From Paramecium tetraurelia (lineage: Eukaryota): a stretch of 42,952 bases of DNA. The notes below the pieces were generated by a model. That model had not been told where the DNA came from, did no database searches, and was given only the letters and a program-made list of their open reading frames with translations. Both the position numbers and the translations under genes were made by a program. Position 1 is the stretch's first letter; every line of letters begins with the position of its first letter. This document shows positions 1,683-39,733 of the stretch, one piece after another. The DNA is taken from NCBI GenBank assembly GCA_000165425.1, contig CT868004.1, positions 248,001 to 290,952 of the forward strand, given 5' to 3'.

Positions 1683-4600
1683 ATGAAATCCGCTAATAAG
1701 ACAGCTTCGATGATAGTGACAATGTTCACGCAACAGAAGTATCATATTGTCTAATATTTAGCTAAGAATTACAACTTGCGTAAGCAAGGAAGGAATTTGA
1801 TTAACTCACAAGGGAAATAGCAGAGAGAAGAAAGAAGCTGCTTTCAGAATTGAATAAGGGTAAGGCTTAAGAAAAGGAAAAGGTAGATGCAAACAAAGCA
1901 GAAAAATTCAAAAATATGGTACTTAAAATATTTAAAAAATTAGGATGAGCACAGAATACCATTGGAAGAACTTGAATAGAGATTTTAAACAAGTTCAAAT
2001 GATGGATTAACTAAAGATGTCGCCAATTAAAGATTGTAGGAAGTTGGAAAAAATGAATTAACTTAAAAAGAAAAAGTACCTTGGTATATGAAATTAATCC
2101 ATGAATTAACTTCTATGTTTTCAATGCTTTTGTGGGTTGGATCAATCTTGTGCTTTATAGCATACGGATTGGCTCCAGAGGATCCATCAAATGTAAATTG
2201 TATTGTAATATTTTAGTTATATTTGGGTATTGTTATAGTAGTAGTAAATACACTGACAGGAGTGATTACATTTTTCTAAAATGCAAAATCAGAAGCAATA
2301 ATGGACTCCTTTAAAAATTTCATACCTCCTGAGACTTTAGTAATAAGAGACGGGCAACAATAAAAATTACCGGCCTCTAATTTAGTACCTGGAGATGTAG
2401 TAATTGTAGAAAATGGAAAGAGAATTCCAGCGGATATTAGAATATTGGAGAGCAATGAGATGAAGGTTGATAATTCAAGTTTGACAGGAGAATCATTATT
2501 GCTAATGAGATCTTTAGAATGCACAAACCCTGCCAATCCTTTGGAGACTAAAAATTTGGCATTTTTTGGAACACTTTGCAAAGAGGTAATTTAAGATCTA
2601 TTATAAAAGGGAAATGGAAAAGGCTTGGTGATTTTTACTGGAGATAATACAGTAATTGGCTAGATAGCAGGTTTAGTAGATAGTTCTGGAGGTGATGATA
2701 CTACTTTAAGAAAGGAACTTAATAATTTTATAAAGAACATAAGTGTAATATCAACAATATTTGGAGTAATCTTCTTTGTGTTGGGCTTTGCTATTGGATA
2801 TCGTATATATAATTCTAAGATTCTTAGCTCCGATCACAAATCTTGTCTTTGGAATAGGAATTATTGTAGCCAATGTTCCAGAAGGACTTTTGGCCACAGT
2901 TACTGTTGCCTTAACACTAACCGCAAAAAAGTTGGCTTATAAGAAGGTTCTAGTGAAAAACTTAGAGGGAGTTGAAACCCTTGGATCTACGTAATAAATT
3001 AACTAAATAATAGATCGTGTGTATGTTCTGATAAAACAGGAACGTTGACTTAGAATAAAATGACAGTTGAAAATTTATGGTACAATAACAAAAAACATAA
3101 GGGAGCAAATTTAGAAAAAATGGGTCAAAAACATTAATACGAATATGATGTCAATGAATTAGGATTTAAAATACTTTAGGAAACAGCTGTGCTTTGTTCA
3201 GAAGCAGTGTTTGATAATTCTTTGCCTCAAGATTAAAAGATTCGAATATAGAATGCAATTGGTTTGAATTAATAGTAAAAAGATTAGAAATTAAAGGAAG
3301 CCAATGAGAAATGGGAATTGAATTTTAATAAGATGCTTTGTTAAGAAAAACCAACTATAGGGGATGCATCTGAAACTGCTTTAATCAAGTTTTTCTAACC
3401 TATAAATGATATCTAGAAAATGAGATAAAGTAGAACACCTGCTAAAGATTCAGAAAATAAGCTTGCAAAAATGCCCTTCAATTCTAATAATAAGTATGCA
3501 TTCATCATAGTGGAATACGAGACCGAAGATTCTCATTATTGTTTATTAAGCAAAGGAGCACCAGAAAGAATATGGAAGTTATGCAATTAAGTATATAAGG
3601 ATGGATAAATTGAATCAAAGGATGAAGAATGGGAAAAGTCCTTTGAGTAGATAAATGAATAATTTGGAAGACAAGGAGAACGAGTATTAGGATTTGCCAA
3701 GCTGCATTTACCAAAAGAATAATTTCCATTTGGATACTAATTTAACATGGATAAGATGAATTTCCCTTTTAATAATCAAGTATTTGTTGGTTTAATCTCA
3801 TTAATTGATCCTCCCAAGGACAATGTTCCTTATGCTGTGATTAAATGTAAAACAGCAGGGATCTAAGTTATTATGGTTACTGGAGACTAACCAGTCACAG
3901 CTACAGCCATAGCTAGATAATGTAACATAATAACAGAGAAAACAGTTGATGAGATAATGATTGAAAAAGGAATATCATTTGAAGAGGCATTCCATTAATC
4001 AAATGCCCTAGTAATTCATGGTGATAAATTAACTAAAATGGCAATTGATGACGAAGGTCTACCTGAAGATGAAAAAGGTAGACAATTGCAGGAATGGTTG
4101 AGCAAACCATAATTAGTCTTTGCAAGAACAAGTCCAGCATAGAAATTGATTATTGTTGATGGATGTCAAAAGAGAGGACATATAGTTGCTGTGACAGGTG
4201 ATGGAGTTAACGATAGTCCTGCAATCAAGAAGGCAGATATAGGAATTGCTATGGGTATTACTGGATCTGATGTTGCTAAGGATGCAGCTGATATGATATT
4301 GTTAAATGATGATTTTTCAAATATTGTGATAGGCATAGAAGAAGGAAGGAAGATCTTTGATAATTTAAAGAAAAGTATGGCTTATTGTTTGACCTCAAAC
4401 ATTTCAGAGCTGGTTCCATTTATTGGATTTGTTATCTTTAGACTACCATTACCATTAACTACAGTATTGATATTATGTATCGACTTGGGAACTGATGTTT
4501 TTCCATGTACCACTTTTGTCTTTGAGGATGCTGAAATTGATATAATGACGAGGAAACCGAGATCAAAGAGTGATCATTTGGTTGGTGGGAAAATGTTCAT

Positions 4601-5399
4601 CTATGCATATTTGCAGAATGGATTCCTATCTACATATTGTGGGTTCTTTTAGTGGTTTGCATCCTTTTATGATTTTGGGTTCTATCCTTCAAATCTACTA
4701 TTCATAGGAATTAGGAAAACTATTCTACCAAAGATTAATGATGTATATGATCCTTAAGATCCTTGGTTTGGTAATACAAATCTAAAGGAAATATTTTAAG
4801 ATGGAACTTGTACAGAATTTCCTGAATCTGAGGTGAAGGAGGTAGATTGGATTTTTGCCAATCATTCCAAACTTGATTTGAGGATGGCTTATCTTGAATG
4901 CAAAGATGGTAAGATTTAGTAATTATTTGAATGGGCCTAATGTACTGTTAATTTAGTATCTCCATATACAAATAGACCTTATTGTTATACGACTGAAGCC
5001 TCAAATTATGCTTAAACAACATTCCTATATGGTATTGTAGTTGGGTAAATAGCCAATTATTAGGGTTTGAGATCTTTAATAAATGCAGGATCCTTTTAAG
5101 GTAATCGATTCACAGTATTTATTAGGTTTTTCGAATTATTATATGTTTTTCGCCTTCTGGGTGGAATTTATGTTAACAGTGTGTTTGTCTTATGTACAAG
5201 TTTTTAACGCAGTATTTGGAACTAGGGACGTGTTATTTATTCATTATGGCACTGGAGCACTTCCTTTTGCATTAGTGATGCTAATTTGGGCAGAGGGAAG
5301 GAAATATCTAGTATATTTTTTAATTATAATGTGTAGATACGTCGTTTCAAATCAAAAACATCATTTCCTAGTTGGTGGGAAAGATGCGTTTAATTCTGA
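1683..5399 (+). CDS. P-type IIC ATPase, Na+/K+ (X+/K+)-ATPase alpha subunit-like, ~1173 aa, 8 introns
   Basis: Motifs [33 protein letters not shown] (Q=TAG), [50 protein letters not shown]. Introns 1739-1761, 1919-1943, 2193-2216, 2586-2609, 2803-2827, 2991-3013, 5101-5125, 5311-5336 (total 195 nt) leave 3522 nt in frame, ending SWWERCVQF-TGA. Confidence 0.97.
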
Positions 5400-12197: not shown

Positions 12198-15100
12198 TCA
12201 TTTTAATTTCTTTAATAATGTTAATGTATGTGGTTCTGTCAATGTTTCTATAGGTAGATTTGTTAATACTAATCTTAGCAAAATTAATCTTTAATTTGTG
12301 GAGTACATCCAAATTCCAAAGACCATAATATAAATAACTATTAAAGATATCCCTGCTGCCAAGTAATATGAATAAATCACGTCTAAATCCTCTGCCATTA
12401 CATTCTTTAAGATTATCATAATGTTATCTATAAACAAGTTAGTACCATCAGTTGTATCTAAAAAGTGCTCAAAAATTGCATTATTGAATTCTTTAGTATT
12501 TAATTGCTCTAATACAATATCGAGCTCATCTCTGTAATCTTTGTTCTCGATCTCATAAATGAATTGCTGTTTAAACAATGTATCAATACGACTCACTACT
12601 CCTTGAATACCAGAACTTAGGAATTCCCGATTGTCATCATCTGGATTTGGTGTTCCATATTTAGCATCAAAAGAACTAGCATCTTATTCACAAAAAGGAA
12701 TGAGATCAGCCAATAGGATACAAAAATCTTCAGAATACAAGTTAAATAGAACAGCTTCATCATCTCCATTTATTCTATTCGATTCTAAAATGAATTCATA
12801 GATATTTGTTAAATTTTCAAAATAGGAGTCATAATATTCCAAAAAGATAGTCATAATTTCTGCAGCACCTTGAAAACTCTAAATCTACGCATCGGTATAA
12901 TATTTCTTTTCTATCAGTTTATTATATAAAATTTGTTAAGATTTGATTACTAAAGCACAGCTTATTGTAATATCTTATTAAGAGGTAAATCTAATAAAAC
13001 TTAAAGTCAATTATTAGGTAGGATATAAATCACTCGCTTGGGAATTGTACAAAAAATAACCTCCAATTATAAATCCAAGAATAATTAAGAAAGTAATTGT
13101 TATAATGAAGACCTCTTTTATAATTGATATTCCAGAATTAGTGATTCTAGAATTTAATACAACATTCTGATTTTTTCTAATTTTTTTCTACCCTTCATCA
13201 TTATTTATATCTGACTTCTATGGATTTTTATTCGACAATTACAATTAATACTCCTTCAATATCCTAGATTAAGTATAAACAGATTCTAAACCCAACTAAT
13301 TTAAAGATGAATATAATAATTTGTAATAGTTTTGCTATTTCCAACTTTACTTCCCTATAAATGTTTACAAAGTTTCATTTACATAAGAGAATCTGATAAT
13401 TTGCTCTTAGGCTTAATTCTCCTACAACCTTCCAGCTAAAAGTATGATAGCTTGACAATATTTTTCAAGTTGATTCCAATAATAAATTTAACCAAACATT
13501 ACCAAACTTAGCACTATTATCTCAATACTAATTTGTAATTAGTATTCAGTTAGCTTTGACTACTATAAATCAAAGAATAATATATTCAATGAATCCAGCA
13601 GTTCAACATTCATGTAATTCACATTCTTTAAGTTATATCTTAATGTCAATAGATTATCTAGATAGTTTTGGTCAATCAAGTCTTCCAAATCATCAAAACT
13701 ATGATATTGAGCCTAAAATAATAAATCTGCAATATTTGATATAAAATTGATAAAATAAGTGTATGTGACTACTTCATTATCTTGATATAAGAAATCTAAA
13801 TTAATTTTACTTAACATTCCTTCATACTCAATCCCAATAAATGTATCATACATGCTCCTTAAACTTCCAAGCATTGTGTCTGCAAGTACTTGGATCTCTT
13901 CTAATGTTTAAATAACTATGTATTCACTGCTATTTATTATATCCAATGAATTGAAGACTAGACTCCATATATAACAAAAAGTCTTAAAGAAATATCTGTT
14001 AAATAATAAAGGAGCTTGAATATTAATTAGAGTCTGTAATAATTCATCATGATATGAACTCACATTTATTAAATGGATTATGATATATATTGCAATTATC
14101 AGGACAATCAAAATATTGATTGCTAACAATGCCTATAAACTTTGAGTTAAATCCCTCTTTGATTGAAATTTCTTAATCACTTGAATTGCAGATATTCCAG
14201 ACGTACCAGAAGTATTACTTGATCTTGATTTCTTTGCACTCACTTCAAAATCATTTTTCTTTTATTACAACTAGTTTTCTTATAATTGTTATAAAAGATT
14301 ATGACTATTCTCTTTCTTATTATTGCTACTTATTCCTTTTACTTGTGATGATTCTGGAACATCAATATCATTTATAATAGGATCTCCATTTCCATATTCA
14401 AGTTGGTTTTATAATTCCGTAAAGTCCTTTTCAATTAATCCCTGTAATTATTACTACTTAGAGGAAGGACTGACAAATTAAATTCTTTGGGAAATAGGTG
14501 CATAACTCATGCTATCTCTTGCAGATTCAATGGCAATCAATTGCCCTTCATAATTAGATAATTCTGGCAGTCTACTCCCATACTTTTTGATCAATAATGA
14601 AACCTCATTAATCTTTGAAACATCTGGACGTATCTCCTCTACAGCTACAGACGGTGCTTCCAATCCATTTTCACTTGGTTGAATATAAGACTAACTGTTT
14701 TCCATATTGGCTAATACGTATATTATTGAAATTACTTTATTAGTTGTAATTTGTTGAAAACGCATTGTTTGAATATTAATTGTTTGCAATTGATTCGTTT
14801 GTTTTATTATCATCAGTTTTTCTAATGTCTAAAATTTCTAATATAAAATAAGCCTTTCTTTAATCCTTTTTTCCCATTATTCTAAATTACAATTGAACTT
14901 TACTAATAAAACTTTATTTCTACTTTTCCTAAAAATACATTATTATTAATTACCTCAAACCTTTTTATATTATCAACCATTTAAGTTTAAACAACAACAT
15001 TAAATAATGGTAATTAATGTAGATATTAAATGCTTTTCATTGAATTCTACATTTCATAATTTTCCATAAGTTATAATTGGACGAGTCTTGTTTTATTCAA

Positions 15101-17635
15101 ATCTAATGATGTTTGACTAGTCCTTGATTTTTATATACTTTAGGATTTTTCATAATTTTGTGTTGAAAATTGTTTCAATGATTGCTATAATTTGTATCCA
15201 TCCTCTAGTATATCCTTTTAATTGAAGAATTTCCAAATTTTACAATAATTATCAGGTGATCCATATTATAAATCATTTTTCAATTTATTCCTTAAATCAA
15301 TGAGCAAATCAAAAATATTGGGAAATAACATGCAAATACTTATTTGATAAATCATATCAGAAGTGAATTTGGTAATCGATTGTTAGAATTAGAAGAACGT
15401 CTCATAAAAATTTTAAGTGCATCCAATCAGATAACCATCCTCTCCAAACAAAACAAAATCTGATGAATGTTTAACCTTTGACATGCAACCCATCAGTATA
15501 TAATCATCTAAAAGTGAAAAATCATTATCAATTTTTAATTATTATGGTACTAAAAATCCTTCTCTAGAAATTCCGAATACTAACTTATAGTCATCAAAAA
15601 ATATAGATTTCGCCGACTACAAATAATCCTAAAGTAATCTATCGTGTTTTTCTGCAAAAAATGATGGCATCAAAGCACTTATATTATCTATTTATTAAAA
15701 TTCTTATTCTTCAAAATCAAAATATTTGGCCAATAACCTTTTATCTGAATTCACTATTTTCCCTCTATTTCTAACCATACTAATTTAAACTAATGCTGCT
15801 CTCTCTTCAACTAACAGAATATTTGTTATTAGATCATCCTATTGTGTATGTTCAATATTAAATATTTCTGCAATTACTTATTCACATATTTAAGTACTAT
15901 AATAATCATTCATTATTGCACTGAAAAACATAGATATGAATTTGATAGTTTATACGTTATAAATCTAAGATAGTTTATCCAAATTATGAAAATCAAATTT
16001 ACAAAATCTTTAAAGTTCTTCATGCAAGATTTAAATTTTTGCACTTTAGGAGATAGCCATTCTCTCAATATCATAAATACTATTAAATCCTTTTATCTGA
16101 TTGGTCCAAAAACTAATTTTTTCCAAAATTATCTCCTTTACCTTTGGTATAAATGATTCTTAGAATTTCAAAGTTTCATGTATCGATTAAATGCTTAATT
16201 ATTTTTCTTATTATTATTATTATTACTAAATACTATTCAATTTAATTAGATTCTGCTATTTTCTGACTAATTATTGAAGAAATTGACTCATTTGATATTT
16301 GACTACCATAAAAAAGTATGATTGCTAGTTAGTTAGAGTTTCATACTTTTTTAATTCTACATATGCCAACAATGGTCGATTGATGTATTCAGCTACATAA
16401 TTAATAAAGAATAACTCAAGTTCTTCATACATAGTTTTAGTATCGCTTTTTGCTTTTTCAAGTTCAGTTTGCAACATACAATAAATAGTTTAATTTGTCA
16501 ACTGAATATGATTATCATTTTTTCTATGTTTCTTATTCCAATTTTTAGCACAATTAACTTTATGAGCTTTGTAGTAGAAATACAAAGAGAAGAACTGCTA
16601 TTAATAGATTAGTTTATTCATTGCAACGCATTATAAAAACAGTTCTTATGCTAATGAAATACAAGAAAAACAATTGATATCTAAATCGTAGGCTTAAATG
16701 GATTTCCTCTCATGAAACACTTCTCCTAAATAATACGAAAATAAAGCAGTAAATAAAAGTAAATATAATATGTCTTCTTAAGCAATTATTTTGCCATCTG
16801 TAAAGACGGAGAAACTGATTATGATGTTGATAAATTCAGCAACCAAGCTTAATTTAAAATGAGTTTCATTCATAAATGGTAAATAGGGTTTAAAGATTAG
16901 GCTTTCAATAATTTTAAATATTAAAGAAAGATGTATTATTGCAATTTGAGCATATTAAACAGTGTCTTAATTGTCAACAAAATAAAATACAGCCATAATT
17001 ACCTGCAAAACATAATGTAAGGGTTGAAAGCCATTAAACTTTGATTGGATGTAGTTGCTTGGAATGAATGTGTAAGCTCTTAAGAAATATTAGGAAAAGA
17101 ATATAATGATTGTGAATAAAATTAAAGTTAAAAAGTTAATGATACTCTGTATTCCAAGAAGTGTATTTTAAAAATTAAGAGTTTCTGGACCATTTAAGAT
17201 TTGCGACACTAATAAAAATAAAATGGGTAATTGAAATACTGTTCCTGTGATTTGTAAGAAATAGAAGATGGATTTTCTTATTGATTGATGTTCAATAATG
17301 CTTCGATTATCGTAAATTCCAAATAATAGCAAAGTGAATATGATTAGAATAATGACAATGAGTAACAGAATAGTAATTATGAATGCAGTCATTCTGAAAT
17401 CAATTTAGGAGTCTGCAAAAATTGGTATGATTAATTAAGATTGAGCTATCATTTGAAATAGTTTGAAATGACCATCACTATAATCCCATAAATTCCATCC
17501 ATGCATTGGCAATAACAAAGCGATATATTAGGAATACATAACAAATATCGATAATTTTAACCAGAAATGAGTTGGTTATGTAGTATGCTTAATGTGAGCC
17601 AAACATGATAGCTAATCAACAATTATAAATTTCAT
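12198..17635 (-). CDS. Large multi-pass membrane protein with internal PAS domain (TmcB/TmcC-like, expanded ciliate family), ~1,800 aa
   Basis: N-terminal block of many TM helices (e.g. MTAFIITILLLIVIILIIFTLLLFG), a helical region, then PAS-like RGKIVNSDKRLLAKYFDFE..ISALMPSFFAEKHDRLLQDYL..GISRKGFLVP. Two paired-TM modules follow, and it ends RLVLTNLPIETLTEPHTLTLLKKLK-TGA. One intron is seen near 14929-14953; a second is inferred from frame. Confidence 0.85.
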
Positions 17636-17706
17636 ATTGCCGCTTTTAAATATTTTTATAAAATAATCATCAAATTATATTCATTAGAATCAATATTATT
17701 AATTAA

Positions 17707-20700
17707 TCATTTTTTCGGTAACCAAGACATATCTTTTTGTTGAATTTTCTTAGCAATTTCTCTCTCCAAATAATTTAATTCCCTCTTTTATTGTAAACAA
17801 ATCAAGAAAAACAAATAAGAAGATAATTTATGTTCTTTTTCAATATGCTCCTGCCAACTAATATTTCTAAGATTAAATAAATTGATTACTTTTCTCTGCA
17901 TTAATCATAGGATATCCCACAAATTTTACAAGACTTGCTCTTTTGATTTTTTGACAATGAGTTGCTATGAGAGTATTACCCACTAATTATACTGATGATG
18001 AGGGCGAAACACAATATGAATATGAGCATAAACAATGTAACAACAAATATGTAATTACCCCAATCATGAGTTTCATCTTCAGAATTAAAGGAATTTTGTA
18101 GTCTGAATCCATTCCCAAAGAACTTCCAGAATTTAGATATGAATGAAAATCGAGCAGTATCTTCTTCATGAAATACTTCAGCATCTTCAACTACAAATGC
18201 TAGAAATGAATAACAATGGATCACAATCAAAGTCAGATACAGTATGAGTAGAATCTTCCAAAAGTTAACAAGTACTGATGATAACACTTTTCTTAAACTC
18301 TAAAATGATAAATAATAAATCAATTACATTCACTCTTGATACTATATCAAATAATAGTAATGAAATGAATGGTGAAGCAAGAAAAGACAAAGCGGCTAAG
18401 ATCAAATAAGTTAAATGATACAGAAAAGTAACATTTGAGATTTAAGCTAGTATTCTATTTTAATTTAGATATTGATGCATCTTCATTTTACGTTTCAGAT
18501 TCGTTTTCTTTTGTTTTTGAGGATCCGGATAAATCTAATTTAGACTTTCTGTCCCTTTCAACCCTAAGTTCACATCTTCCTAGTTTTGATCTCTATAATA
18601 ATCAACTCTAAATGCTATATATGGTTATTGATTTATAATTTCAATCATTAGTACGAAAGCAGATGACAATATCAAAATGATTGTTAAAACGATAACAATA
18701 ATTTCGATTGTTTGACTCTTAAAAAAGAAACTGTTTACCTTTCGTTATAAATCACCCAGATAACATAAATTTAGTGTAAGCACTATCAAGTAATTTAATA
18801 TCTTCAGCAAATGAATGTTGATTGAAAACCAATTCAATTTTGGATACTTCGAAATATTTTAACGAAATGCTACTTCTTTTTAGAAATACTCAGACATAGT
18901 TTTTAACTATTCATACCTGCCTCTCTTCATTCTTAACATCTTAGCCTTTTTGGTAGTTTGTTGTAATAAAAAGAAGGATTGAAAAGGTAGAATAAAATAT
19001 AATAACTTATTCTCATCATGTTGGCTGATTTATATTTATCCTACATACTTACTAAAAAAGTTAATAGCCTCAGCCATCTTCATACACATATTTTTCTTAA
19101 TGATGTCTCTTTGATTATTATATTAAGCACCCTCTAACCAATTTATTGCAATCACTTCTAATTTCTATTCAATTTTGCTCTCCCTTTTTTCTGCAGGGTC
19201 TATAACCTGATCTTGTTCATCAAACTTTTTGAATGGTATTGCTTCATCTAAGGACTACTTAACAAACTATTTTTTATTTGTTATTTTGTAAATGCTTTCT
19301 TTAAACTTGCTTTTCGGACTTGAATTATCACCAAACATTGTATACTGTTTATTTACCAAGGGGGGAGTCTTCAAAGGCGTCGATTTCTTTTTCACATTTA
19401 TTTTTTGTTGTGTCCTTAAGTCTTTTATATCTAGAGAAGCAATTATAGAATCATTTGAATTCAAATATTCCTTCAATAACTCCACTCGTTTTTAATTGAA
19501 CTCTTGTTATTTCACAAAATTCTTCATACTAATGAAAATTCTTAGAAAATTTAAATTTTGCTTTTAGTTTAATGACAATTCATTAGGTTAATCTCCAATT
19601 ACTCTATCCCGCAACGTCTACCAATAGTCCTTCTTCTTATCAAAATTTCCTATACTTTCAATGTTTTCACTCAAAATGTTAAATAAAATAATTAAGTCAA
19701 AGCAAATTCCTAATACTTCAACCTCTCCAACAGCAATGAAGTTTGATTAGCATTTTAAGTTTGTGCAATTAATATTATCTACATGATTGCATTTCTATCC
19801 TTACATAACAATATTCAGTCTTGGAGCAAATTATTCATATATCTTTAATAGTTTCTCAAATAGCATTTAAAAATTTAAGTCTGTATAACTATAATGTACC
19901 TCTAATTTGACTTACAATAGTAATTAAATAGCTGATTTAAATAATACTCTAAAAGTATTATCTTATAAGTTATCTGCTAGAATATCATATTTTTATGTTG
20001 TTATAATAAATTAGATGATTGAAATTAATGGTTTATGGCTAAAAACTAGATATTAATTTTGTGGATTTCCTTCACAAAAGTTATTTAAGCATTTTAGACA
20101 CTCAGAATATAATGTAAGTATGTCCAGCTCAGTACATATATGTGTTAATTATGATCTATTGATATAATTATAAAAATTGGATGTAAAATATAATACCTCC
20201 TCTATTAAAACTTATTGATTATTAGAGTCGCAAAACTAGCAACATCTATCAATATATAAGATTAATTTTCCAATAAATCTTAAGATTGAAATTATAATCT
20301 TAAAAAATTGGCCAAGTAAATAATTTCTTTCGTTTTAAATATCCACTCTACTAATAAAAAATCCTTATTGATTTGACTTAGTAACCTGTTTTGAATGTTG
20401 CTCCAAACTTAACAATCTATCAACTTGATTAAATGCTCTTGAAATGAATTTATGAAATGATAAACAACTTTCATTCGAGAACATATTTCCCAACTATCCT
20501 TCATCCATTTTTTATATTTATTCAAATATTGATAAAGTTAATTGAACTTTTTTAATACAATGTAAAGCATATTCATTATCATTTTCCTCTAAATATATCA
20601 TAAGAAATGGAATTTATTTTAATGCAAAATGAATCAGCTTTTCTTTCTCAATAATGCTCTACTCTTTTTACAATATTTCATTTAATATATGCAAGGCTAG

Positions 20701-23700
20701 AAATTTATCTTAGCTAGCTTCTTCTTTTAATAATCTTGAAAATGTATATATGACTTCTTCGTCACTCTGAAGTTTCAATAGAAATTATTCCTACAAATCC
20801 TCAAATAATAATTTATCCAATCTATATAGATTATATACATTATCTGGATTGATCAATAAATCAAATTAATAAATAAATTAATTAAATGTTTATTGAATGA
20901 AGATGGACTTTTATTGATAATATGTTTATTACAATGTTTATTTTCTTTGGGCTTCCTTTTGATCTTATTTATTGAGTTTCCCCTTTTGGCTCTCAAAATA
21001 ATTTGTCAATTATTAATAGAATTTATCTAATAAATAAATAATTATAATTTACTTAAGTCCAGCAAACTCTTTGATGACTCTTTTGTTTACATATGGGTTT
21101 CATAATATATGACTGCATCTTAAAATGTTAGATACTAATCTAAGTCAGGTAGAACTTTTAATTATTTTAATTTGATCAACACTCCAAAATGTTCATCCAA
21201 AATATAGTTGAATAAACTACAAAATTTATCTCTGCTCACTAGTTTATCACCATTATCAACACTGTATTCCCCTTCCTGAATCTGCAAATCCTAATGAAAT
21301 GAAAACTCACCTCTTATCTTATCCATCATTTCGCTAATTGTTAGGTGATTGTCCATCATATATCTCCTTAATTTCTCATAAAATTAATATAAATGTTTTT
21401 TAAGGTCTTCTTATGAAAATTTCTAATTCATTCTTTGTTTATATTCCTTTATTTACATTTTGATAGCTCTTTAAGTTTTGTGTTCTTGGGCATATTTGAT
21501 TGTTTTAAAGTGCTTTAGATTAGAATCCAAGGGACATTGAGTTAAGCATTTTGATAGAAAGAATTAAATCTAAGCCAAATACACTCTAAACTTTGGAGTA
21601 AGTAATTAGATTTCAAGAATTACCAAGGTTTGTCTCATGCTTTCTAAAATTAATTTAATTAATGCCAAAGGTTCATAAAGAGAATCTTCCACTACCTAAT
21701 TCATTTACTCACTTTGAAATGCTTATTAATTGTGTTAGTTTTCAGATATATTCCATTTTCTGATTTATATTTCATTGAATAATTGCTAGAGTAGTGTTAA
21801 AACACCAAATTGAATATTCTACCAATTTGAAATTGCTAATACATATTTCCAATATTCAGTGTAATCATTCACAATTCTCTTTTGTTCATTAATTTATTAT
21901 TATTATAATTAGGCAGCAGTATTTTGATTTGTTAATCCAAGAGTTGAATTTAATAAGTTCTTTTTTTTCTCCTCTGTATCCTAAAATAACTTGTCCTTCA
22001 TATATTCTATTTAGAATATATCCTATCTCATATTTTCCTTATCCTCAGGAGAATTTGATTCAAATGTCTTTACTAACCCATCCAGATATTTAGGAAATGC
22101 CAATAAGTCATTTAATATCAGCAATAACAGTTCTCTCATATCTTGCATAGAAAAAGTATGGTTCGTTTGAATTTAAGTGGCATAAACCAATTTGATTAAT
22201 TCTGATTTCATTAGATATGAGGTTCCAGGATTGTGTATCATTTAATTAATTTATTCAGTAAATAAAATACCTTGGATCTGTTGAACTCCTAAGGGATAAT
22301 CTTTTATGACTTAGGCTGTTAATGAATTTGAGGCTGAAAATATTTAATAATCCAATCCATAAAATGATTATTCATCATTCTAATTCTTAATTTCATTAAA
22401 TTGTTTGTAGTATTAAAGTTCATTAATGAAGTTAGGCACTTTAAATAAATTACTTAATATTTCCCTTTTTATGATAGTCAATCTCTCAGGTGAAATTTAT
22501 TTGTTTTGTAAAATGGACAACATAGCATAATAAAACTATTGACAACTTGATTTGTACTCATACATAGTGCTGAAGATGCATTTGACTAATTATTATATTA
22601 AACTTTATTTTTCTACCATACTCTAACAAAACACTCCAACTAATTTTGACACCTTAATATTATTTGCTCCTAGTTTTATGATAATGAAGATATCATCTTA
22701 TATTTCTTCACAATTTAATTTATTATTAATTAAAAACAAGCACAATAAGTTTATGCAGATTTACTATGTAGGATTAAACTCTTTAAAGACTTTAAGCAAT
22801 CTAAGAATTTATTTATGTACTCCTAAATTTCTGAGTATATTTTAGGTTTTTTTTAATTAGAATTAATCCATTTTAAATTCTTTAATTCTATTAATTAACT
22901 TATTTAAGAGGTTCTCGATTTCCTGATTTTTATCCTCTTTTTATTAAACTACTCCTTCCTAATTTTTTTTTTACTAATCCTCTAATTATTAAATTAATAA
23001 TTCTAATTTAGTAGGTGAAAATATGGATTCGCTTGAATTCCCTGTTAACTATTGATACAATTCAGTTTCTTCACCTTCTAGGATTATTTCAACTTATTTT
23101 AATTTTTAAATCCATTATTGATTTACTCCTTAGTTTAATGCTTCATAACATATTTTGAAACCCTTGCTTTGGAATAGAAAATTTGAGAAGTAGAACCCCA
23201 ATAATGAACCTAAAATTAAATTTTTGTTTTCTCCCAATTACATCCTACTTATGATATCTTTAATTTCAAATATAAGTTTATCTAATGATTAAAGACAATA
23301 GGTTTAATGAGATCTTTAAAAATGTTTAATGAATTCTTATATTTACACATTCAATTAAATAATGAAATACTACTTAAACAAGAGTCCCGCGTTAAAAAAT
23401 AGTTCATCAATTAGATCCACTAACCCTTATTATTGTAAAGAAAGAGCACTACTGATTAATTCATTTAGCCAACTCTCTTTGACTTCCAACGCTAACTTTT
23501 CCTTCAAAGATAAAAAGGGTACAAAAATTTATAGCATTGGTTTGACTATGTTACATATTTGTTCTTCTGTTAAATATCCAAACTTTATGATTTTATATAT
23601 TAAATGATAGAGAGTCGTTAAGAATTTGATTTTTTATGAAACCTTGCTTTTCTATTCAACCTTCTCAGTCGAAACCTAATTAGAACTCATTGAAGGCAAG

Positions 23701-26648
23701 CGAACATACATTTTCTTCTTTTTAACTTGAATCAATCCTTCCTAAAAGCTCTGCCCTATAGTTAATAATTCAAAAAGTAAGGGTAACATTTTATCCTCAA
23801 ACTCCTTTATAACTCTTTCAACCTCTGTAGGTTCGACTTAATGATTGAAAATTTGAGCTATCTTTTTGTCTTTTTCCATTTATAGTTAACCCCAAATAAA
23901 ACATGTTTGAGAATCTATTGGTAAAAATGGATCTATATCTATGTATAAAACTTCATACAACTTTAGATAACTATTTTTCATAGATAATGGAATTAAAGTT
24001 GATTTTATGACCTGTTAGATGTGATTGGATGAGATACCAAGTTGTTTCACTTTTTTCATGCATTTTTTATTCCTGCCTTTACATAGATGAGCCAAAAGAT
24101 TCACACATGCAGTTAAGTAACTCAGGAATTATAGTAGAGATTTCTTATATAGTATTTTTTCCCCCAATTCTTCTAAAGAGAATAATTCAATTTCATTGTT
24201 TTCAGACGGTCGAATTAAATGTAATTATGACAAAGATGGATTTTTTATCAGAAAATCTGCTAAAGCTTCTTCTCTGAATAGTGTAAAGGTTGGTTTTGAT
24301 TGAGTGATATTAAATAAACATAGAAATTTGGTTTTCCCACTTTTTCCTTATGAAAACAATTCCTTGCATACTTTCTTTTGATATCTTATTATTCCTTGAT
24401 TATTCGAATCAACCATGGCAATCGAAATGATTTTCAAGTAAATTGTCATGTCATAAATATTATTTCCAATTTCATTAAGTGGCTCCAATAATTTAACCCA
24501 ATCTGCTAAGTCAATATTAGTCTAATCTCGAACTGCCTCTCTCAAAATAGCAGCTACTTATGGGCCATAACTCCTTATTTATTAGCATAAGAATTCGTCA
24601 TTGTCCAATGCAATTCTTCTATTAATTTAGTTATTCTTAATTGATAACAAGATTATTCTATATATTTAAATTGGCATGGATGCTAAGACTTTGAATGCAA
24701 CATAAGACTATAAGTGATTATAAATATAATACTGCTGATTACTGAGATGGGAGTGGGCGATCTGTTTTATAGAGACGACTTCTATCCTTCTCTCGGAACA
24801 CTTTTTAAGATGTGAAGACAATATTGTCTATTAATTTCAATAATGAAAATAAGAGTTCCAATATTTTCTATTCTCTCATCACTTTTTATTTTTAGGCATA
24901 ATTTATTTAGTTGTTATTATTTATCTCATGCTCATTCGGCTTAATTGTCAAAAGACTATTAAGATTATCCAATTATAATTGTAAATGATACACTTCTTGT
25001 TCTAATTAAGACTTCTATGATAGAGATTTCAAGTAATCAAATAATACAATATCATCATTTTATTTCCTCTTATCTGACACTATTGACCATTATTATAGAT
25101 ACACATGAAAATTCAGAATTCTCATTTAAATTTCATTAAAGTCCTCCAAAATGTTAGACGATTAAACATCAATAGATTTGACTGAAAATAGTTGAGGAGA
25201 TTAATCAGTTTAAACTTGCTAAAATTAAAATTTGGCATTCTAAGTTAAACATAAATAAGTTCCCAAGGCACTTTAAATGCTAACTATTTATTCATTAGAT
25301 TCTTATTGACCAGTCTATTCAGGATTAATGTAAAATACACTATAGTCATCTTAAACATATCCTGATGTCAGTTTTAATCTTTTCTCATCATTAGGGTCTA
25401 CAGTTAAATATTATTGTGTGAAAAGAGATTTTAGTTTGCAAGCATTAGGTTATTCCAACTATTCAGTGAATGGATAAATTGGCTGAATCTCAAAATACGT
25501 ATATGAGTTAAGTAGATTACTAGATAATGCTTCGTAGTCTTATACTAAGTATTTGTTAAGATCTAGAGTTCTTAATGCAAATGATTCCTATTGTGATTAC
25601 TATTGATCATTAGTTCCACTCGTAATAAGAGCTGTTTTATTTGCAATAAATGATTGTAACTATTTTTCACTTGTTCCAACAGCAATTTAGGATTGTTAAT
25701 GAATTATTTACACAATGTTGTTTTGATAATGTTTTACTTTATGAAGTTGAAAACTGTCAGGACAATCACTTGCATTGATATCAATAAATTTATTGCTCGA
25801 ATATCTGGATTCATCCTTCTCGAGTTTTAAATAATATTACCTATTTGAATCTTATTAAAAGAATAATTAATCATTGTACTAAATTTTATCTCCTACTTTC
25901 TTTGCACTCGAACTAGGCATTATTCTTAATATATTCTAATGTCCTATTTGAGATGATAGATTCACAGAAAATGACCCTCTCTCTTAAGACGGCATATCCA
26001 AGTTAATCATCACACTCAATTTAGACTTTATATTCACTAACACTATCCGCTAACCATAACATATGTGACTTTAATCATTTTTTATTGTCCTTGGATTTCG
26101 AATTGTAAAAAAGCATTTCTGCTAATGGGAATATGGATTATTGATGACTTGATTTGACATATTCACACAATTTATTGAACCTGAATATTTTAAATTCCCT
26201 ATTAATATCAATTCATGGAACAGTACATCTGATTACTTCCCAGACATTGTTACGTTTGTTTTTATAACAAATGCATCACCAAATTTCAAAAATGGATGCT
26301 CTGATTATCTATGGCTTTATAGCTCTTATTATGGGTCTCTATTTTAAATAAATGATTTCTTTTTTAATTTTGTGACTTCTTTCTATTCTGATTAATTCAC
26401 TGATACGTCATTGTCTAAAATCTCATCATTTTCTTATTATCTTAAAATGTCCTAATTCGAATCTTTATTTATACTTATTAAGGAGTCGTTGATGATCTTA
26501 CTTTTGTTTAAAGAAATGTCAATTATTTTGATTTCTTAGACTCTTATTCAAAATCCTCTCTTTATTATATTTGAGCCTCCTGACTTGATTATTTTCCAGA
26601 GTATATGCTAATTGGTTATATTAATGTTGGCGATCTATTCAAATCCAT
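17707..26648 (-). CDS. IP3 receptor/ryanodine receptor-type Ca2+-release channel (CRC) homologue, full length ~2,900 aa, divergent pore
   Basis: N-terminal FLKFGDAFVIK..CFFTIR..VGDKIQYND (suppressor beta-trefoil). QKVMREQKILELLFSLL (IP3-binding core helix). QNILRNLGVH (second RIH). CLNNFCEGNPQNQ (RIH-associated). EAINFFSKYVGQIQI..LYFILP. Six-TM block. C-terminal CKIC..HIEKEH..YLFF..DMSWLP. Several 20-30 nt introns. The start could extend to an in-frame ATG at 26759. Confidence 0.92.
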
Positions 26649-28089: not shown

Positions 28090-28419
28090 TCATTTTTTGA
28101 ATTCTTTATATCCAACATAGCAACCGCCTACTAATGCGCCGACTCCAATTGCTGGTAATGCAATGGATCCGATTCCTGACATTGCTAATCCTTAAGCTAT
28201 AGAAAAGGCACTTCCTGATGCAACACTTCCAATGCCGGCTTAAGCAGCTGCAGCAAAGCTTCCTGCAACTGGTCCTATGGAAGAGAATCCATAAAGTGCC
28301 AATCCAGCCTTAGTTAAAGCAGTGCTTGTTCCTGCAACAATAACTGTTATTAAGCTTCCGTTCTTGATATTATCTAATAATCCAGGCTTTTTAGGTTTGT
28401 CAAATGATTATGAATTCAT
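28090..28419 (-). CDS. IFI6/IFI27-like (ISG12/FAM14 motif) small Gly/Ala-rich membrane protein, 109 aa
   Basis: Intronless 330 nt: MNSQSFDKPKKPGLLDNIKNGSLITVIVAGTSTALTKAGLALYGFSSIGPVAGSFAAAAQAGIGSVASGSAFSIAQGLAMSGIGSIALPAIGVGALVGGCYVGYKEFKK. Matches the GF..G..AGS.AA..Q...G.V..GS.F...Q...M ISG12 pattern. Confidence 0.85.
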
Positions 28420-29324
28420 AATAGAAATGATGTTTTTATAAACAAAAGAATTTTAAACTCCATGATATAAAATTTCCAGATTCTAGAATTAAATAGAAAG
28501 TGAATTATTTTAATAAATATTAATAATAATTATAAAAATAAATGTAATTCAATAACACTTGTCAATATCTTATTTTAAGTGGGAGCATTCTAGGTATTTA
28601 ATTCAAGAATCTCAAAACAAAGAAATCAATTTGGATCAAGATTCAAAAATTACTTGGGTTTTATAATACCAAGATATTAGAACAAAGCGATGTTCTTTTT
28701 TAAAATAATCAGTAAATTAATAATAACTGTAAAAAAAGTATTTTCCTTTTCAATTATTATGTTAGAATTGTAAAAATTACAATTCATTCTTCCTCTAACA
28801 TCTAGAGTTCATATAGTGTTCTACTATAAGAATTGAGAGCATTGAAAAGATATTTTTTCAAAAGGATAAAAATACAACAAAGAGGATATCAATAGGAATT
28901 TGATGATATTAATTAAATTCAAACTATAATTTCAAGATAGGATTTATAAAGTCATAATGAATGTAAAACAAACAAAGATGTAGTTGTGGATTTCTTAAAA
29001 TTTTTGTTTTTTTATTCAACAAAAAGCATTTACTTTGAAAAATAATGTTGATTTTCCAAAAAAATAATGAAAAATTTATCTATAAAATTAGAATGATAAT
29101 ATATCTATTGTAATAAAAGGATTTCTACTTGTCTTTCTTTATGAAAAGTTTTAATGAAGTATTACCTTTTTTGTAAAGGTTTGCTTAAATATTTGATACA
29201 ATTTGTAAATGCTTAACATTAGTTTCCAAAAAAAGTGATAAATTTCGTTTTTCATAACTTATAGTTGCTTAGAAGAGATATATTTCTAAGCCAAAAATTA
29301 TGTATTAAATATTAAAATAAAACA

Positions 29325-30722
29325 ATGAATCAAAAATTAATTTGCCCTTCACATCACAATTTAATTCAAATAGTTTGTTTGAATGAAAAATGCTAATCAT
29401 TTCGATTTAGTTGTTATGAATGTTTAAACAAGGAGCATCATCTTAGCCATATTAGAGATGTAAAAACAATATAGGATTTTCTAGAATATAAATTACAAAG
29501 ACAAAAAGAAGATTAAGATTTTGCTAGTTAATTTTAACATTATCTTGAATAGATAATCAATGTTTTCAATTAAATAAGAAGCAAATTACTATTTTTATAA
29601 TCGAATAAAATGGATAATTTGGACTAAATGAATGAACTTTTGAACTTGTTTTTATAACAAAATTAGGATAAATTTGTCTCAATCATATTGAAAGTTTAAT
29701 AAGAGTTGTTATCTGTATTAAAGAACTACAGCGACAATCTTAATGAGATATAAATTAATTCATTCTAATCAAATCTAGGGAAATAGGATGTCAAATACTA
29801 ATTAATTTAAAATATAAAAGAAAGTCCTATTTACTCTTTTTCATTTAATTGCACTTCCTCAATGCTTGCTGCAGGTTATTCAACAGGTTAGATTGCTATA
29901 TTTGAATTAGGAACAGAATAAATTAGAAAATAGTAAATATTAAAAGAGCATAAAGGATCTGTTTATTCAATTGAATTTTTTTATCAGAAGGACTGTTTTA
30001 TTTCTGGAGGTCAAGATAGGATGATTTTAATATGGTCTTTTGAAAACAAACTCTGGATTTGTTAGTAAAGAATAGATGCTCATTCAGATTGGGTGAGCCA
30101 TCTTATTATTAATAAGAATAATACTCTCATTATCTCTAGTAGTGGAGATAAGACTATCTAGTTTTGGAATAAAGATGAATTATGGAAACGTTGCTAAACT
30201 ATAAATGCTCATTTAAATACAGTTAATAGTTTAAGTTTAAATGATTCTGAAGATCAATTGATCTCATGCTCATGTGATCATACAATAAAAATATTTGAAT
30301 TCAATAATTCAAATTGGATAATACTTTAAACAATCAAATTAGATAAATTAGGGTTTAGATTATGTTTTATTAATAATTTTACATTTGTTTTCCATTCTGA
30401 AAATTCAATAAATTTAAGTGTCTATAAACTCAGTTAATCAGATGGTTAATATCATCATATAAAAAATGTTTTGATCGAAAATGGGGATCATTGTGGCAAT
30501 TTATTCCCTTCTAAATACATAGGATCTAAAAATATTATATTAACTAAAAATGGATCTAAAGTAAATTTGATTAAAATATCTTCTGATGGAGAATTTTTAT
30601 TAGAAGAAGTTATTGATTTTGGTACTAGAAATTTATTTGGAAATATATCATATGATGGTGAATATATAGCCACATGGGATAAGATTACAAAATAGGTACA
30701 AATTAGAAAATTTGTTCAATGA
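29325..30722 (+). CDS. B-box-like zinc finger + coiled-coil + WD40-repeat protein, 465 aa, intronless
   Basis: N-terminus CPSHHNLIQIVCLNEKCQSFRFSCYECLNKEHHLSH, then a heptad-rich linker. WD repeats: EHKGSVYSI..FISGGQDRMILIW and AHSDWVSHL..ISSSGDKTIQFW. Ends FGNISYDGEYIATWDKITKQVQIRKFVQ-TGA; 1398 nt in frame. Confidence 0.9.
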
Positions 30723-31621
30723 TTTTTATTACCCAACAGTATTATCAATTGGAAGATTCTTTTTAAATTTTCGCAATAATTTTCTTGTAAATTAATACTA
30801 ATCTTCCAGTTAATCTTAAATATGGTATTGAAAAGTCTTTGATTCAATTTAGAATCTTTTCTTAATAAAATTGCATCTTTTATTAATCAATAATTTGAAG
30901 TTACTTTGCTAGAAAATGCTTAAAAAATGATCATTCAAGTACATTCATCCTTTACCTCCAAAAATCCAATTTTAACCATATCAACTAACCCTTCTATGAA
31001 AAACATTTTAACCACCATTCAAACAACCCAAAAATGATCTTTGTCAAATTTTATTCTTCACAATCTGCCAACATTTTACAATTAAAAAATCTTGTTATAA
31101 TTCTAAAGATCATTTCCATCAACATAGATAAATTACATTTTCGGCCACAAAAACTCTCCCCAATTCTAATATACTCTTCAATTAATGAACTCTCCGTATA
31201 ATTTGTTCAAATTCAATAAAACTTCTAATAACTTTTACTTAATTCTATTCATTTACAGTCGAATACAGATTCAACTCTCCTTTTAAACTGTCGATACAAA
31301 AGTTCCCTATCTTTAAATATATAAATCACAAAATGCCCAATCCCTATTAGGTGTTACTATGTAAGAAAAGCTAATTCAGTATTTATAAAATAAATGGTAA
31401 TGAGTTTTGATTAAATTTATTAAATTTATCAAGCTTCCAGAAAAAATAATAAGTCAGACAATTATCTAAGCAAATAGAATATTAATTATGTTTTAATCCT
31501 TTAGAAAATGATATTTTAATTAAAACATATAATTATTTCTTATAATATTAATAGAAAGAGCTAAATATCATATAAATTATGTAAAATATTTTATTCTCAA
31601 ATAATTTATCAAAAGTATTAA

Positions 31622-34021
31622 ATGATCCAGAATATAGGCTTACAGGATTTCGAAATCTGTTAGACACATAGAGAAAAAATAGTTTACATTGATAAAGAAT
31701 AATCAGACTCAGCAAAAAGGGCCCTATGCTATCAATGTGTTGCTGAATAGGAAAAAAATAGAAATCTAAAAATGATAGATAATATCAAAAGCCAACTATC
31801 TAATTTAATGGAGTATTTAATTTAAAACAGAGAATCGCGAACATAATAAAATATTGATTTGTTAAAAGAATTACATAATTTTTTACAATAATAATAAGGA
31901 AAATTTTGTTACTAAATAGAAAAATGTCAATAGAACATATATAATTAAATAAGTCTGTTACAAAAGGCTAACTTATAATACAAAAATAAAATAAGCCAAA
32001 TAACAATACATGATTTGAATAGTCCAGACAAACTAAAGTCTTAGATAAAAAAAGAAGTTATAGATTGCAAGGGTGTAAAGGAATTTTTGATAAAACAAAT
32101 AAATGGTTTTGAAGTATTTTCAATAAAGTAATAATTTGAAGAAAGAATATAAAAAATTGATTTTGGAGATTAAAATTTAGAATTAGAATAACTATGTAAT
32201 TTGGAATTAGTGAACAACGAAAATGAATAATAACAAAAGAATATTTGGAAGTGTGACCTACATAAGGAGGAGATTATGTTTATAGATTTGGGACATCAAT
32301 AAACTATTCCTAATCGATTGGCATGTAGAAAATGTGTGCCAAAATATAATATTTAGTTTACAAATATCGAAGATTTGTAAATGTAATGGTAAAAGTATGA
32401 TTAAGATACTCAAAAGTCAGCTTAGGCCTATCTAAATTTCCAAAAAAAGATTAATAATTAAATTTTAAAAACAATATAAGAATTCAAGACTGAAGTCAAT
32501 CAGGATATTGATGGATTATGTTAATTAATTTAAAAATCACTTTAATTCAACGTTTATGATTCATTTTACAAACCTTTTACATTGTTATAGAAAGATTGGC
32601 TAACCATTTCAAGGGATGAAATCATTATTATTGCAGATTCTATAAGTTAAAAAAATAGAGACTAAATTATTAAAGCAAATGTCAGAAATGAATTCAAAAA
32701 TAATGAGTAATTTATAAAAAATACTATTGCAAGTAATTTCTAAAAGATCTAAAGTCTTATCAATACATTATTATCTGAGATATAGGAAACAATACCTTAA
32801 GAAAACAATCTTTATCTATAAACTAAAAAACACTATTAAATAAGAAAACCAAAAAATTATTCATTTCTTGGTCCTACAACAACCCGTAATGAACAATTCC
32901 TTACTGAAAACTCTCCAACAATTAAGAGAGAATTTAATATTGAGTCTAATCGTGATTCTTTAGAAATAGATACAATTGATCGAGATTCTCCTTAATTAAA
33001 CAAGATTTCTAGGATGAAATCCCTTTTTAGGTAAAATTGGGCCAAAAACATTTAAAGGCCATTTCAATATGAAGTGGTCTGTGAGATTAATGAAAACTCA
33101 CAAACTTTTACCTTTGCCATTAATTCTTAATGTTCAATTTTGGTTTTGGGATAATATAGAGGACAAATCAAAGTTTTCTCATTTTCTAATGGATCATTAA
33201 AATTGATATAGGTTTTAAGTGAACATAATTTTAATGTAAAATGTCTTTACTTTATGAAACAATCTTCATCATTTTTATCTGGGAGCAATGATAGATCCAT
33301 AATAATTTGGGAGGAAGATTATAATAAAAGGTGGTATAGTTGTCAGAAATTAGTAGGTCATTAAGGGTATGTTTAATGTCTCATCATGAATACTTAAGAA
33401 AACCTTATAATTTCAGGTAGTTAAGATAAGACTATAATATTTTGGATCAAAGAAATTGATTGGAAGTGTCATTAGATATTGAGGGCACACGAAAATAGTG
33501 TAAGGAGTATTAGTTTAAATGCTGTTGAAGATTAATTAATATCTTGTGCAGAGGAAGATTTCAAAGTATTAGTTATATAACTTTAAAACGATCATAAAAC
33601 TTGGGCCATAGTACATGAGATTAAAGTAAATTACTGGGGTTCAAGTGTACTTTTCATAAATGAAAGTATGTTTGCATTCTAACCACATGGGATTGATTAG
33701 CTTTATCTCTTCAAATAATAAAGGAATTAGAAAAATTAATATATCTTTAAGGAATAGATAGCTATTAAAAGTGGACAAAATTGTACTGCTTTATTTCCTC
33801 TAGTTTTCATAAAGTAAAAATCTATTTTGATGACAAAAAATGGTCTATTTATCAATATAATTCGAAAAGATAAGAATGATGAATACGTAATTGAATAATC
33901 ATTCGAAAATTCTGTAAATTGTTGCGGAATTTAAGGAACTCTGTCATCAAATGGAGAATTTCTAATAATATGGGATGGACAAGTCAATAGGATCATAGTA
34001 AGGAGGTTTGAACAATATTGA
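31622..34021 (+). CDS. Tandem (zinc-finger-like + coiled-coil)x2 + WD40-repeat protein, 799 aa, intronless
   Basis: Modules CQTH..ALCYQC and CDLH..RLACRKC are each followed by coiled-coil. WD repeats: EHNFNVKCL..FLSGSNDRSIIIW and GHQGYVQCL..ISGSQDKTIIFW. C-terminal GTLSSNGEFLIIWD; 2400 nt in frame. Confidence 0.9.
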
Positions 34022-38512: not shown

Positions 38513-38743
38513 AATAATAAATTAAAGAGAGAAGTCTAATTTCTTGATTGATTGATATCAGCAAATAGGTTTTTTATTCATTTATCAATAAATATGATAA
38601 CAGATATTTTAAGGTTTTGAAAGAAATATAGTTTCTTGTATTATAATCAATAATACATGATACATGTGTATGAGTCTCAAAATTTACACAATCTGCTTTC
38701 TAAAAAGAATAAAGTTTAGAATTTTTTATTTATTTTATTAAAA

Positions 38744-39733
38744 ATGTTATAAGAAGAATTCTCGTATTAACTTTAATCACACCTTTCCTATGATTTATAG
38801 CTATGCTTGGCAATTGCAATCAACCACAATAATTAATAATTAATTGCAAGTGAATAAAGTTTAATCAAACTCTTCCAATTCAAAGATGGTGTTTTGAAAT
38901 TATTGGGGGCTTTTAAAAACTCTGCTGATATCGTAACGCTTAATTATTTTAAGAAAAGATCAAACTTTATTTCAGGTTCATATGATTCATAGCTGACTAT
39001 TTGGTCTACTAACATTTAATCCTCAAAATATTTATTAAAATTAACTGGGTGCTCAGATAATATTAATTGTCTAGTCATTCACCCTAGCGAAGATCTAATA
39101 ATCTGCGGTTCCAATTGTATCCAATTTTGGTCTTAGGATTCTGAAATTGCAAAGCACTAATAATGGGTTAAGTTCTAAAATATAGGAAATCAAATAGAGA
39201 GATGTTTTGGATTATCACTAAATTAAAATGGAAATGAATTAGTGTCATGTGGAGAAGCTAGATAAATTCTAGTTATGAGTGGTTCAACTAAATAATAATG
39301 GAAAATTATTTAAACAATTAGTGTAGAATATTAGGGTTTTAGATTGACTTACATTTCCGATCGAGTATTCTCATTTCAACCTGAAAGATCAGATTTTCTG
39401 GAAATCTACTCTTTCAATTCGTTTTTCGGAAAATATAAGAAATATGATGATATCTAAGTCACTTTAGGTAGTAAATACTGTTATGAGTATTTTCCCTCTG
39501 TTTACAATCCTTCTAAGAAAATTATTCTATCAAAAAATGGTCAAAGTATAAATATTATCAATGTGTGTTCCTAATCAGATTAGTAAGAAAATATGAAGTT
39601 TAAATTACAACAAAGCATTTAATTTGGTACATCAAGTATATTTGGAACAATGAGTGATAATGGTGAATATTTAATCATTTGGGAATATGATATTGGCTAA
39701 ATTTAAATTAGAAAATATTTGGTGGTGAAATGA
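38744..39733 (+). CDS. WD40-repeat protein (propeller only, same family as 29325 and 31622), 329 aa, intronless
   Basis: MLQEEFSYQ..CLAIAINHNN..FISGSYDSQLTIW..INCLVIHPSEDLIICGS..YFPSVYNPSKKIILSKNG..FGTMSDNGEYLIIWE..IQIRKYLVVK-TGA; 990 nt in frame. Confidence 0.88.

Follow-up and report, generated by a model that had tools for sequence, protein, structure and literature searches.

A Paramecium gene of the IP3R/RyR superfamily in which the selectivity filter and S6 gate motif are replaced

We have analyzed a stretch of 42,952 nucleotides of the Paramecium tetraurelia genome (assembly GCA_000165425.1, contig CT868004.1, positions 248,001 to 290,952), called the window below and numbered from its first nucleotide. 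Judged by sequence comparison, a gene on its minus strand (26759-17707) encodes a protein of the IP3R/RyR superfamily, which we describe as CRC-like after the Ca2+-release channels (CRCs) of Paramecium. The protein fails in three features that are canonical in the animal channels. The glycine-rich selectivity filter is replaced, the gate motif of the S6 helix is replaced, and the pair of lumenal cysteine residues is missing. The C2H2 zinc module and the C-terminal tail that follow the pore are retained. The most likely reading is that such a protein would still conduct cations, with altered selectivity and gating.

The full-length relatives comprise nine proteins from five aurelia species, falling into two clusters at 90% identity that correspond to two ohnologue lineages. 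Lineage A comprises the proteins of P. tetraurelia, P. octaurelia, P. pentaurelia and P. primaurelia, which are 93.5-100% identical to that of the window. Lineage B comprises CAK81313 of P. tetraurelia and proteins of P. octaurelia, P. pentaurelia, P. primaurelia and P. sonneborni, around 74% identical to the protein of the window. One B-lineage protein, P0008 of P. octaurelia, is annotated with 3045 amino acids, as against 2979-2983 in its four orthologues; the extra length is probably a difference of gene model, for example an intron left in or a start placed further upstream.

Membership of the superfamily, proposed in an earlier sequence-only reading of this DNA, is borne out by domain, profile and profile-profile matches. 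The Pfam family Ion_trans matches the open frame that contains the pore (6.3e-08). The IP3R/RyR N-terminal beta-trefoil, Ins145_P3_rec (PF08709), matches residues 217-339 (25743-26109, as calculated from the exon model), scoring 29 bits on the annotated protein against a cut-off of 23; on the genomic frame the score is 32 bits. When a profile built from the nine proteins was searched against the chains of solved structures, ITPR2 was matched at 5e-21 and RyRs and IP3R1 at about 1e-13 (RyR 3e-13), and all 51 distinct sequences among the matches listed are named IP3R or RyR. Alignment by hhalign with P0018, a protein of 3475 amino acids with the full Pfam domain set, had a probability of 98.8 over 2232 columns. 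Pfam found no match to RIH, RIH_assoc or MIR at E ≤ 1; the hhalign alignment to P0018 spans that region.

The layout of the family is retained, with the N-terminal beta-trefoil, a long helical solenoid, a channel domain of six transmembrane helices and a zinc-finger domain coupled to S6. Two motifs of the core solenoid, C-E-G and Q-G-x-x-C-x-N, can be aligned with their counterparts in RyR3; the Glu of C-E-G is one of the Ca2+-activation ligands of RyR and IP3R. The zinc module consists of C2910, C2913, H2930 and H2935 (17830-17930, interrupted by intron 5). Its spacing, C-x2-C-x16-H-x4-H, is that of fish RyR3 (P0020), and all four ligands are invariant in the nine proteins. The protein ends with W2971-L-P2973 (17716-17724), two residues before the C-terminus. 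The zinc module and tail are thus intact, as the sequence-only reading had it.

The pore region is encoded by exon 5, in a minus-strand open frame at 17802-18329. The peptide of 80 residues on which the sequence-only reading was based is Y2816-Y2895 (18212-17973). When the frame was compared with solved chains using phmmer, 37 of the 38 distinct sequences found at E ≤ 10 were RyRs, the best being RyR2 with E = 0.013. The alignment places G-V-R-A-GGGIGD-E of RyR2 over G-F-R-L-QNSFNS-E of this protein. The same register was obtained from MAFFT with fish RyR3, P0015, P0016, P0017 and P0018, where P0016 and P0017 are relatives with canonical-like filters. Both HMMER and MAFFT thus align GGGIGD with the hexamer QNSFNS (Q2854-S2859, 18081-18098). 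The earlier reading had correctly seen that the glycine filter is replaced, but had given the replacement as LQNSFN, which is off by one residue: the L stands opposite the residue that precedes the first glycine. The G-x-R that precedes the filter is kept, as had been noted, in the form G2850-F-R2852. The pore helix is F2839-G2850 (18108-18143), which is helical, with low confidence, in an AlphaFold2 model, and in which the sequence FFGNG is invariant in nine of nine proteins.

No canonical GGG[V/I]GD filter was found, and none of the nine full-length proteins contains GG[VI][GSD] anywhere. The triplet GGG is missing from the four A-lineage proteins; in the five of lineage B its sole occurrence is near residue 1259, well away from the pore. 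The possibility that an assembly error had removed a GGGxGD present in the orthologues, allowed for in the sequence-only reading, thus falls away for practical purposes.

The S6 helix, W2866-Y2895 (17973-18062, placed by MAFFT), shares the anchor I-F-x-x-T with RyR. Past this anchor the register was set using the intermediate sequence P0015, in which the hinge Gly and a T-[YF] pair are retained. The sequence S-I-I-S-G-Q-Y then aligns with the canonical motif G-x-I-I-D-[TA]-F, from which it departs. The hinge Gly is replaced by S2889, the gate Ile by S2892, the Asp by G2893 and the Phe by Y2895. At the gate-equivalent position the A lineage has Ser and the B lineage Thr; in RyR1 the hydrophobic gate residue is Ile4937, according to PMC5034117. 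There is no Cys between C2815 in S5 and C2883 in S6, and RyR3, P0016 and P0017 each carry two Cys before the pore helix in the MAFFT alignment. The replacement of both filter and gate motif, and the loss of the lumenal Cys, therefore agree with what had been read from the sequence.

The general layout of the pore domain can still be recognized. Hydropathy peaks correspond to S1, S2, S3/S4, S5 and S6. An AlphaFold2 monomer of residues 2500-2975 has a mean predicted local distance difference test score (pLDDT) of 52.4 and a predicted template modelling (TM) score of 0.42, with pLDDT < 50 across the filter loop. At this low confidence it shows S5, a pore helix of 12 residues (2839-2850), a loop and a long S6. 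Searched with this poor model, Foldseek gave only RyR and IP3R chains in all 49 rows listed (ranks 1-50), with a best E of 2.3e-10 and TM scores of about 0.42-0.46 on the query.

Identical residues occupy 2018 of the 2975 positions in all nine proteins. Around the pore these include FFGNGFRLQ, D2861 and 22 of the 30 residues of S6; C-terminal to it they make up 11 of the 14 residues in the linker and 52 of the 66 in the zinc-finger domain. The hexamer is QNSFNS in all four A-lineage proteins; in the B lineage it is QNAFSQ in four proteins and QSAFSQ in the fifth. Word-indexed protein searches matched only the gene's own two Paramecium clusters, fish RyR3 and one further protein, and a search of this kind with the pore piece found no match among proteins of 308-2000 amino acids. 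An exhaustive search of representative sequences returned three proteins at E ≤ 0.001; the gene's own cluster was not among them, so that absences from this search carry little information.

Comparison with other channels shows which of these features are shared. The vertebrate RyR1-3 (8uxf, 5gky and fish RyR3) have the same layout of S5, pore helix and S6, and have in common with this protein the G-x-R, the I-F-x-x-T anchor, the spacing of the zinc module and the CEG and QG..C motifs. Identity in the channel domain is about 25%. The RyRs differ in having GGGIGD where this protein has QNSFNS, in their hinge Gly, gate Ile, Asp and Phe (here Ser, Ser, Gly and Tyr) and in their two lumenal Cys. 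The S5-pore loop and the linker between S6 and the zinc module (by three residues) are shorter here, and Pfam finds no SPRY, RyR-repeat or EF-hand domains in this protein. The vertebrate ITPR1-3 (3jav, 6dqj and 12ad) include the best profile match, and have a similar length and an N-terminal beta-trefoil. The profile alignment to IP3Rs begins only past the filter, at S6; their GGGVGD and their long, glycosylated lumenal loop with Cys are absent here.

The best match of the exhaustive search was P0015, a 425-residue fragment assembled from a public sequencing run. By reciprocal comparison it is the nearest relative outside Paramecium, at 148 bits as against 60-73 for canonical relatives. P0015 shares the ending of S6 (L-I-S-G-T-Y-S), where Ser, Gly and Tyr occupy the positions of the gate Ile, the Asp and the Phe, and likewise has no glycine filter. 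The rewritten pore is therefore a trait of a clade. The hinge Gly is retained in P0015, and the loop at the place of its filter has a quite different sequence. The change in S6 is therefore older than any single sequence of this loop, and has been better preserved.

Rewriting of the filter is the rule and not the exception in Paramecium, and has already been described for its release-channel family. Ladenburger & Plattner 2011 (PMC3213138) list 34 CRCs of P. tetraurelia in six groups. According to that paper, only CRC-IV-1a/b and IV-2, i.e. three of 34, carry the whole GGG[V/I]GD; others have a core GG[V/I]G or variants of it, and CRC-VI is described as having 'practically no similarity' to the consensus at this position. 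The same source localizes members of all six groups to organelles of vesicle trafficking, and suggests that they supply Ca2+ there. Paramecium channels without the filter were thus already in print, which goes part of the way towards the counter-case named in the sequence-only reading, a described CRC subfamily with this filter, but this particular gene is apparently not among them.

Several comparisons, drawn from the available tables, legends and text of the 2011 paper, bear on that last point. Neither CAK59787, the protein of the window, nor its ohnologue CAK81313 is among the 22 CAK/CAI accessions of Table 1 and the legend of Figure 2, and their lengths of 2975 and 2982 match none of the 34 listed CRC lengths. 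In the 32 CRC entries with a channel domain that ends in Pro, this Pro lies 11-75 residues from the C-terminus, as against two residues here, if we equate that residue with the proline of WLP. The only entries of similar length are CRC-I-1a/b/c, which are 81-94% identical to each other and have GG[V/I]G; neither is true of the present protein. For 12 of the 34 entries only third-party annotation or database identifiers are given, and these were excluded by length, layout and text. We conclude that the gene and its ohnologue are very probably not among the 34. No inventory of CRCs later than that of 2011 came up in a literature search, nor did any publication under the gene, protein or UniProt identifiers.

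By their published description, the channels that most resemble this protein are CRC-VI-1, -2a/b and -3. They come from the same organism, and are giant proteins with a C-terminal channel domain of six transmembrane helices and a divergent filter. According to PMC3213138 they are shorter than the present 2975 amino acids (2021-2774), have their channel-domain Pro 11-47 residues before the C-terminus instead of two, and carry different accessions. Conservation in CRC-VI is said there to be confined to the channel domain; the present protein also matches Ins145_P3_rec significantly near its N-terminus. What seems to be new, then, is an ohnologue pair that is apparently missing from the published inventory, and in which the gate motif of S6 is replaced as well as the filter.

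What might such a pore do? Our preferred reading, in which we have slightly better than even confidence, is that the protein conducts cations, and that its selectivity and gating are altered relative to the IP3R and RyR of animals. It would assemble as a tetramer in an internal membrane and pass cations, with a conductance, selectivity and gating unlike those of the animal channels. The filter would be lined by the side chains of Gln, Asn and Ser in place of the glycine backbone, followed by the invariant Asp. With Ser in place of the hydrophobic Ile, the gate may be more polar, or displaced. Gating would still operate through the coupling of S6 to the zinc finger, perhaps with Ca2+ as a co-agonist. 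According to PMC5034117 the filter of RyR1 is wide, and works through a field of acidic residues and not by exact fit. A loop that lacks glycine but is followed by a conserved Asp could therefore still conduct.

A number of observations weigh against this reading. D2861 is the only conserved acidic residue after the filter. The hexamer differs at three of its six positions between the ohnologue lineages, which indicates that the filter is not tightly constrained, and the loops that flank it are poorly conserved, with three of 15 and one of six positions invariant. The segment from pore helix to S6 as a whole is at the 30th percentile of conservation among all windows of 57 residues. By comparison, the filter hexamer of animal channels is described as a conserved consensus (PMC3213138). 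The unlike loop of P0015 likewise speaks for a loosely constrained filter. The low depth of RNA reads on the gene also weighs against the preferred reading. Lastly, normal gating might not survive the exchange of the gate Ile, hinge Gly and neighboring Asp. That the loop has drifted between the ohnologues counts against a finely tuned filter, and keeps alive the reading that the protein does not conduct.

That alternative, put forward in the sequence-only reading and still speculative, survives best of the others, and we regard it as a minority possibility to be taken seriously. The protein would be a non-conducting pseudo-channel acting in assembly, tethering or as a signaling scaffold, or a subunit with a modulatory role only, in heterotetramers with its ohnologue or other CRCs. 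The replacement of all six filter residues together with the gate Ile, hinge Gly and Asp is what might be expected of such a protein. So is the drift of the hexamer between ohnologues, and the fact that the pore segment is conserved no better than the protein average. The many CRC paralogues of Paramecium listed in PMC3213138 would be available for mixing. However, a pure scaffold would hardly need the invariant FFGNGFRLQ, D2861, most of S6 and the whole module linking S6 to the zinc finger. The residues of the loop, moreover, stay polar (Q, N, S, A and F) and have not become bulky or hydrophobic. We know of no silent subunit in the IP3R/RyR family, though no search was made for one, and this also counts against the idea.

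A quite improbable alternative is that Ca2+ release is canonical and essentially unchanged, the filter not being critical in the CRCs of ciliates, and that this is the channel of some trafficking organelle. It draws on PMC3213138, in which just three of 34 CRCs have the full filter and yet members of all six groups are localized to trafficking organelles. The wide, charge-driven filter of RyR (PMC5034117) is consistent with it. Set against this, the GG[V/I]G core that most CRCs keep or vary is wholly absent here, and the gate motif of S6 is changed too. PMC3213138 itself leaves open the permeation of such CRCs.

The gene is expressed and full-length, and it is maintained, as the sequence-only reading had supposed: there are spliced transcripts and nine intact orthologues and ohnologues. 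Contigs of run X5 lack all five predicted introns exactly. Those of run X3 lack three and do not reach the remaining two. In two RNA-seq runs primed with oligo-dT, 41 and 73 reads fall on the gene, a low depth, and in both runs nearly all the first mates lie on the plus strand, as expected for RNA from the minus strand. In the run index, at least part of the stretch occurs in 20 run rows from 11 studies, and 17 of these rows have half its words or more; none of the rows is recorded as RNA. That the gene is a decaying pseudogene, or an artefact of assembly or annotation, can be ruled out for practical purposes and is extremely improbable: the low RNA depth and the missing Pfam matches to RIH and RIH_assoc would fit it, but the frame is intact over 2975 codons with one TGA, the introns are removed exactly in transcript contigs, the ohnologue and four other species, independently assembled, have the same pore sequence, and the stretch recurs in the run rows as well.

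In X3 and X5, one contig each stops matching at 18330, 19463, 20794 and 22931 and continues with unlike sequence. These loose ends are probably transcripts of the 74%-identical ohnologue that match locally.

The gene structure was derived as follows. The window is AT-rich, with a GC fraction of 0.22-0.32, and under the ciliate nuclear code (NCBI table 6) it contains a chain of long open frames on the minus strand at about 17.7-26.8 kb. When a P. pentaurelia protein (P0001) was used as tblastn query, these frames tiled it in six pieces. The coding sequence runs from ATG at 26759 to TGA at 17709-17707 and has six exons and 2975 codons, among which 214 in-frame TAA and TAG codons are read as Gln; the sole TGA is the stop. 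The spliced product is 100% identical to P0005, i.e. CAK59787 / XP_001427185 (GSPATT00030423001) of P. tetraurelia.

In the splice model exon 1 is at 26759-26475, exon 2, which begins at residue 96, at 26451-24733, exon 3 at 24707-21053 and exon 4 at 21026-18328. Exon 5 (18299-17890, S2787-K2923) encodes the end of the S4-S5 linker, S5, the lumenal loop, the pore helix, the filter-equivalent loop, S6 and the first half of the zinc module. Exon 6 (17866-17707) encodes the second half of the zinc module, with H2930 and H2935, and the WLP tail. All five introns have GT..AG ends. Intron 1 (26452-26474, 23 nt) is absent from both X3 and X5 contigs; the contig table leaves out 23 nt at 26451, one base off the 26452 of the model. 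Intron 2 (24708-24732, 25 nt) is absent from the X5 contig, X3 having no contig there. Intron 3 (21027-21052, 26 nt) and intron 4 (18300-18327, 28 nt), the latter directly upstream of the pore exon, are absent from X3 and X5 contigs. Intron 5 (17867-17889, 23 nt), which splits the zinc module, is absent from the X5 contig.

This structure modifies two points of the sequence-only reading. The frame had been called unbroken, which is true of the full-length coding sequence, but the tail is reached only on removal of the 23-nt intron at 17889-17867. The channel had been placed at 17900-18290, which contains the pore peptide, but the two His of the zinc module and the tail with WLP fall outside, in exon 6.

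The window contains other genes. On the plus strand at 1854-5399, two adjoining frames match Cation_ATPase_N, E1-E2_ATPase, Cation_ATPase, Hydrolase and Cation_ATPase_C, and by these domains are assigned to a gene for a P-type cation-transporting ATPase, interrupted near 2975 by one or more short introns or frame changes. Three plus-strand genes at 29145-30722, 30899-34021 and 38621-39733 have WD40 beta-propeller matches and similar C-terminal sequences, and on this similarity look like a local cluster of paralogues. Directly downstream of the channel gene, minus-strand frames of 918 and 955 amino acids (12198-17680) contain hydrophobic stretches and have no Pfam family at E ≤ 0.001; they may represent a single large membrane protein, or two, of unknown family. 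A small hydrophobic frame rich in Gly and Ala on the minus strand (28090-28548) has a weak match to Ifi-6-16, with E 0.0009 and a score of 19.5 bits that falls short of the 29.1 cut-off.

The glycine filter and the hydrophobic gate of S6 functionally define the channels of the IP3R/RyR superfamily. The value of the present finding is tempered by the divergence of the filter already described as common among Paramecium CRCs. It nevertheless suggests that the 34 release channels published for Paramecium leave out at least one ohnologue pair. A tentative idea, to which we give a low probability, is that this gene, its ohnologue and relatives like P0015 form a seventh, uncatalogued lineage of IP3R/RyR-like proteins in ciliates with a different ionic job, where a loop of Asn, Gln and Ser and a polar Ser gate take the place of the glycine filter and the Ile gate. 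If so, the lineage might provide, for example, a pathway for monovalent cations or counter-ions, or a leak from Ca2+ stores, while keeping the Ca2+ and zinc-finger gating machinery. A conserved and expressed paralogue that has lost both filter and gate and kept the gating module is a natural experiment on the need for the pore loop in this family.

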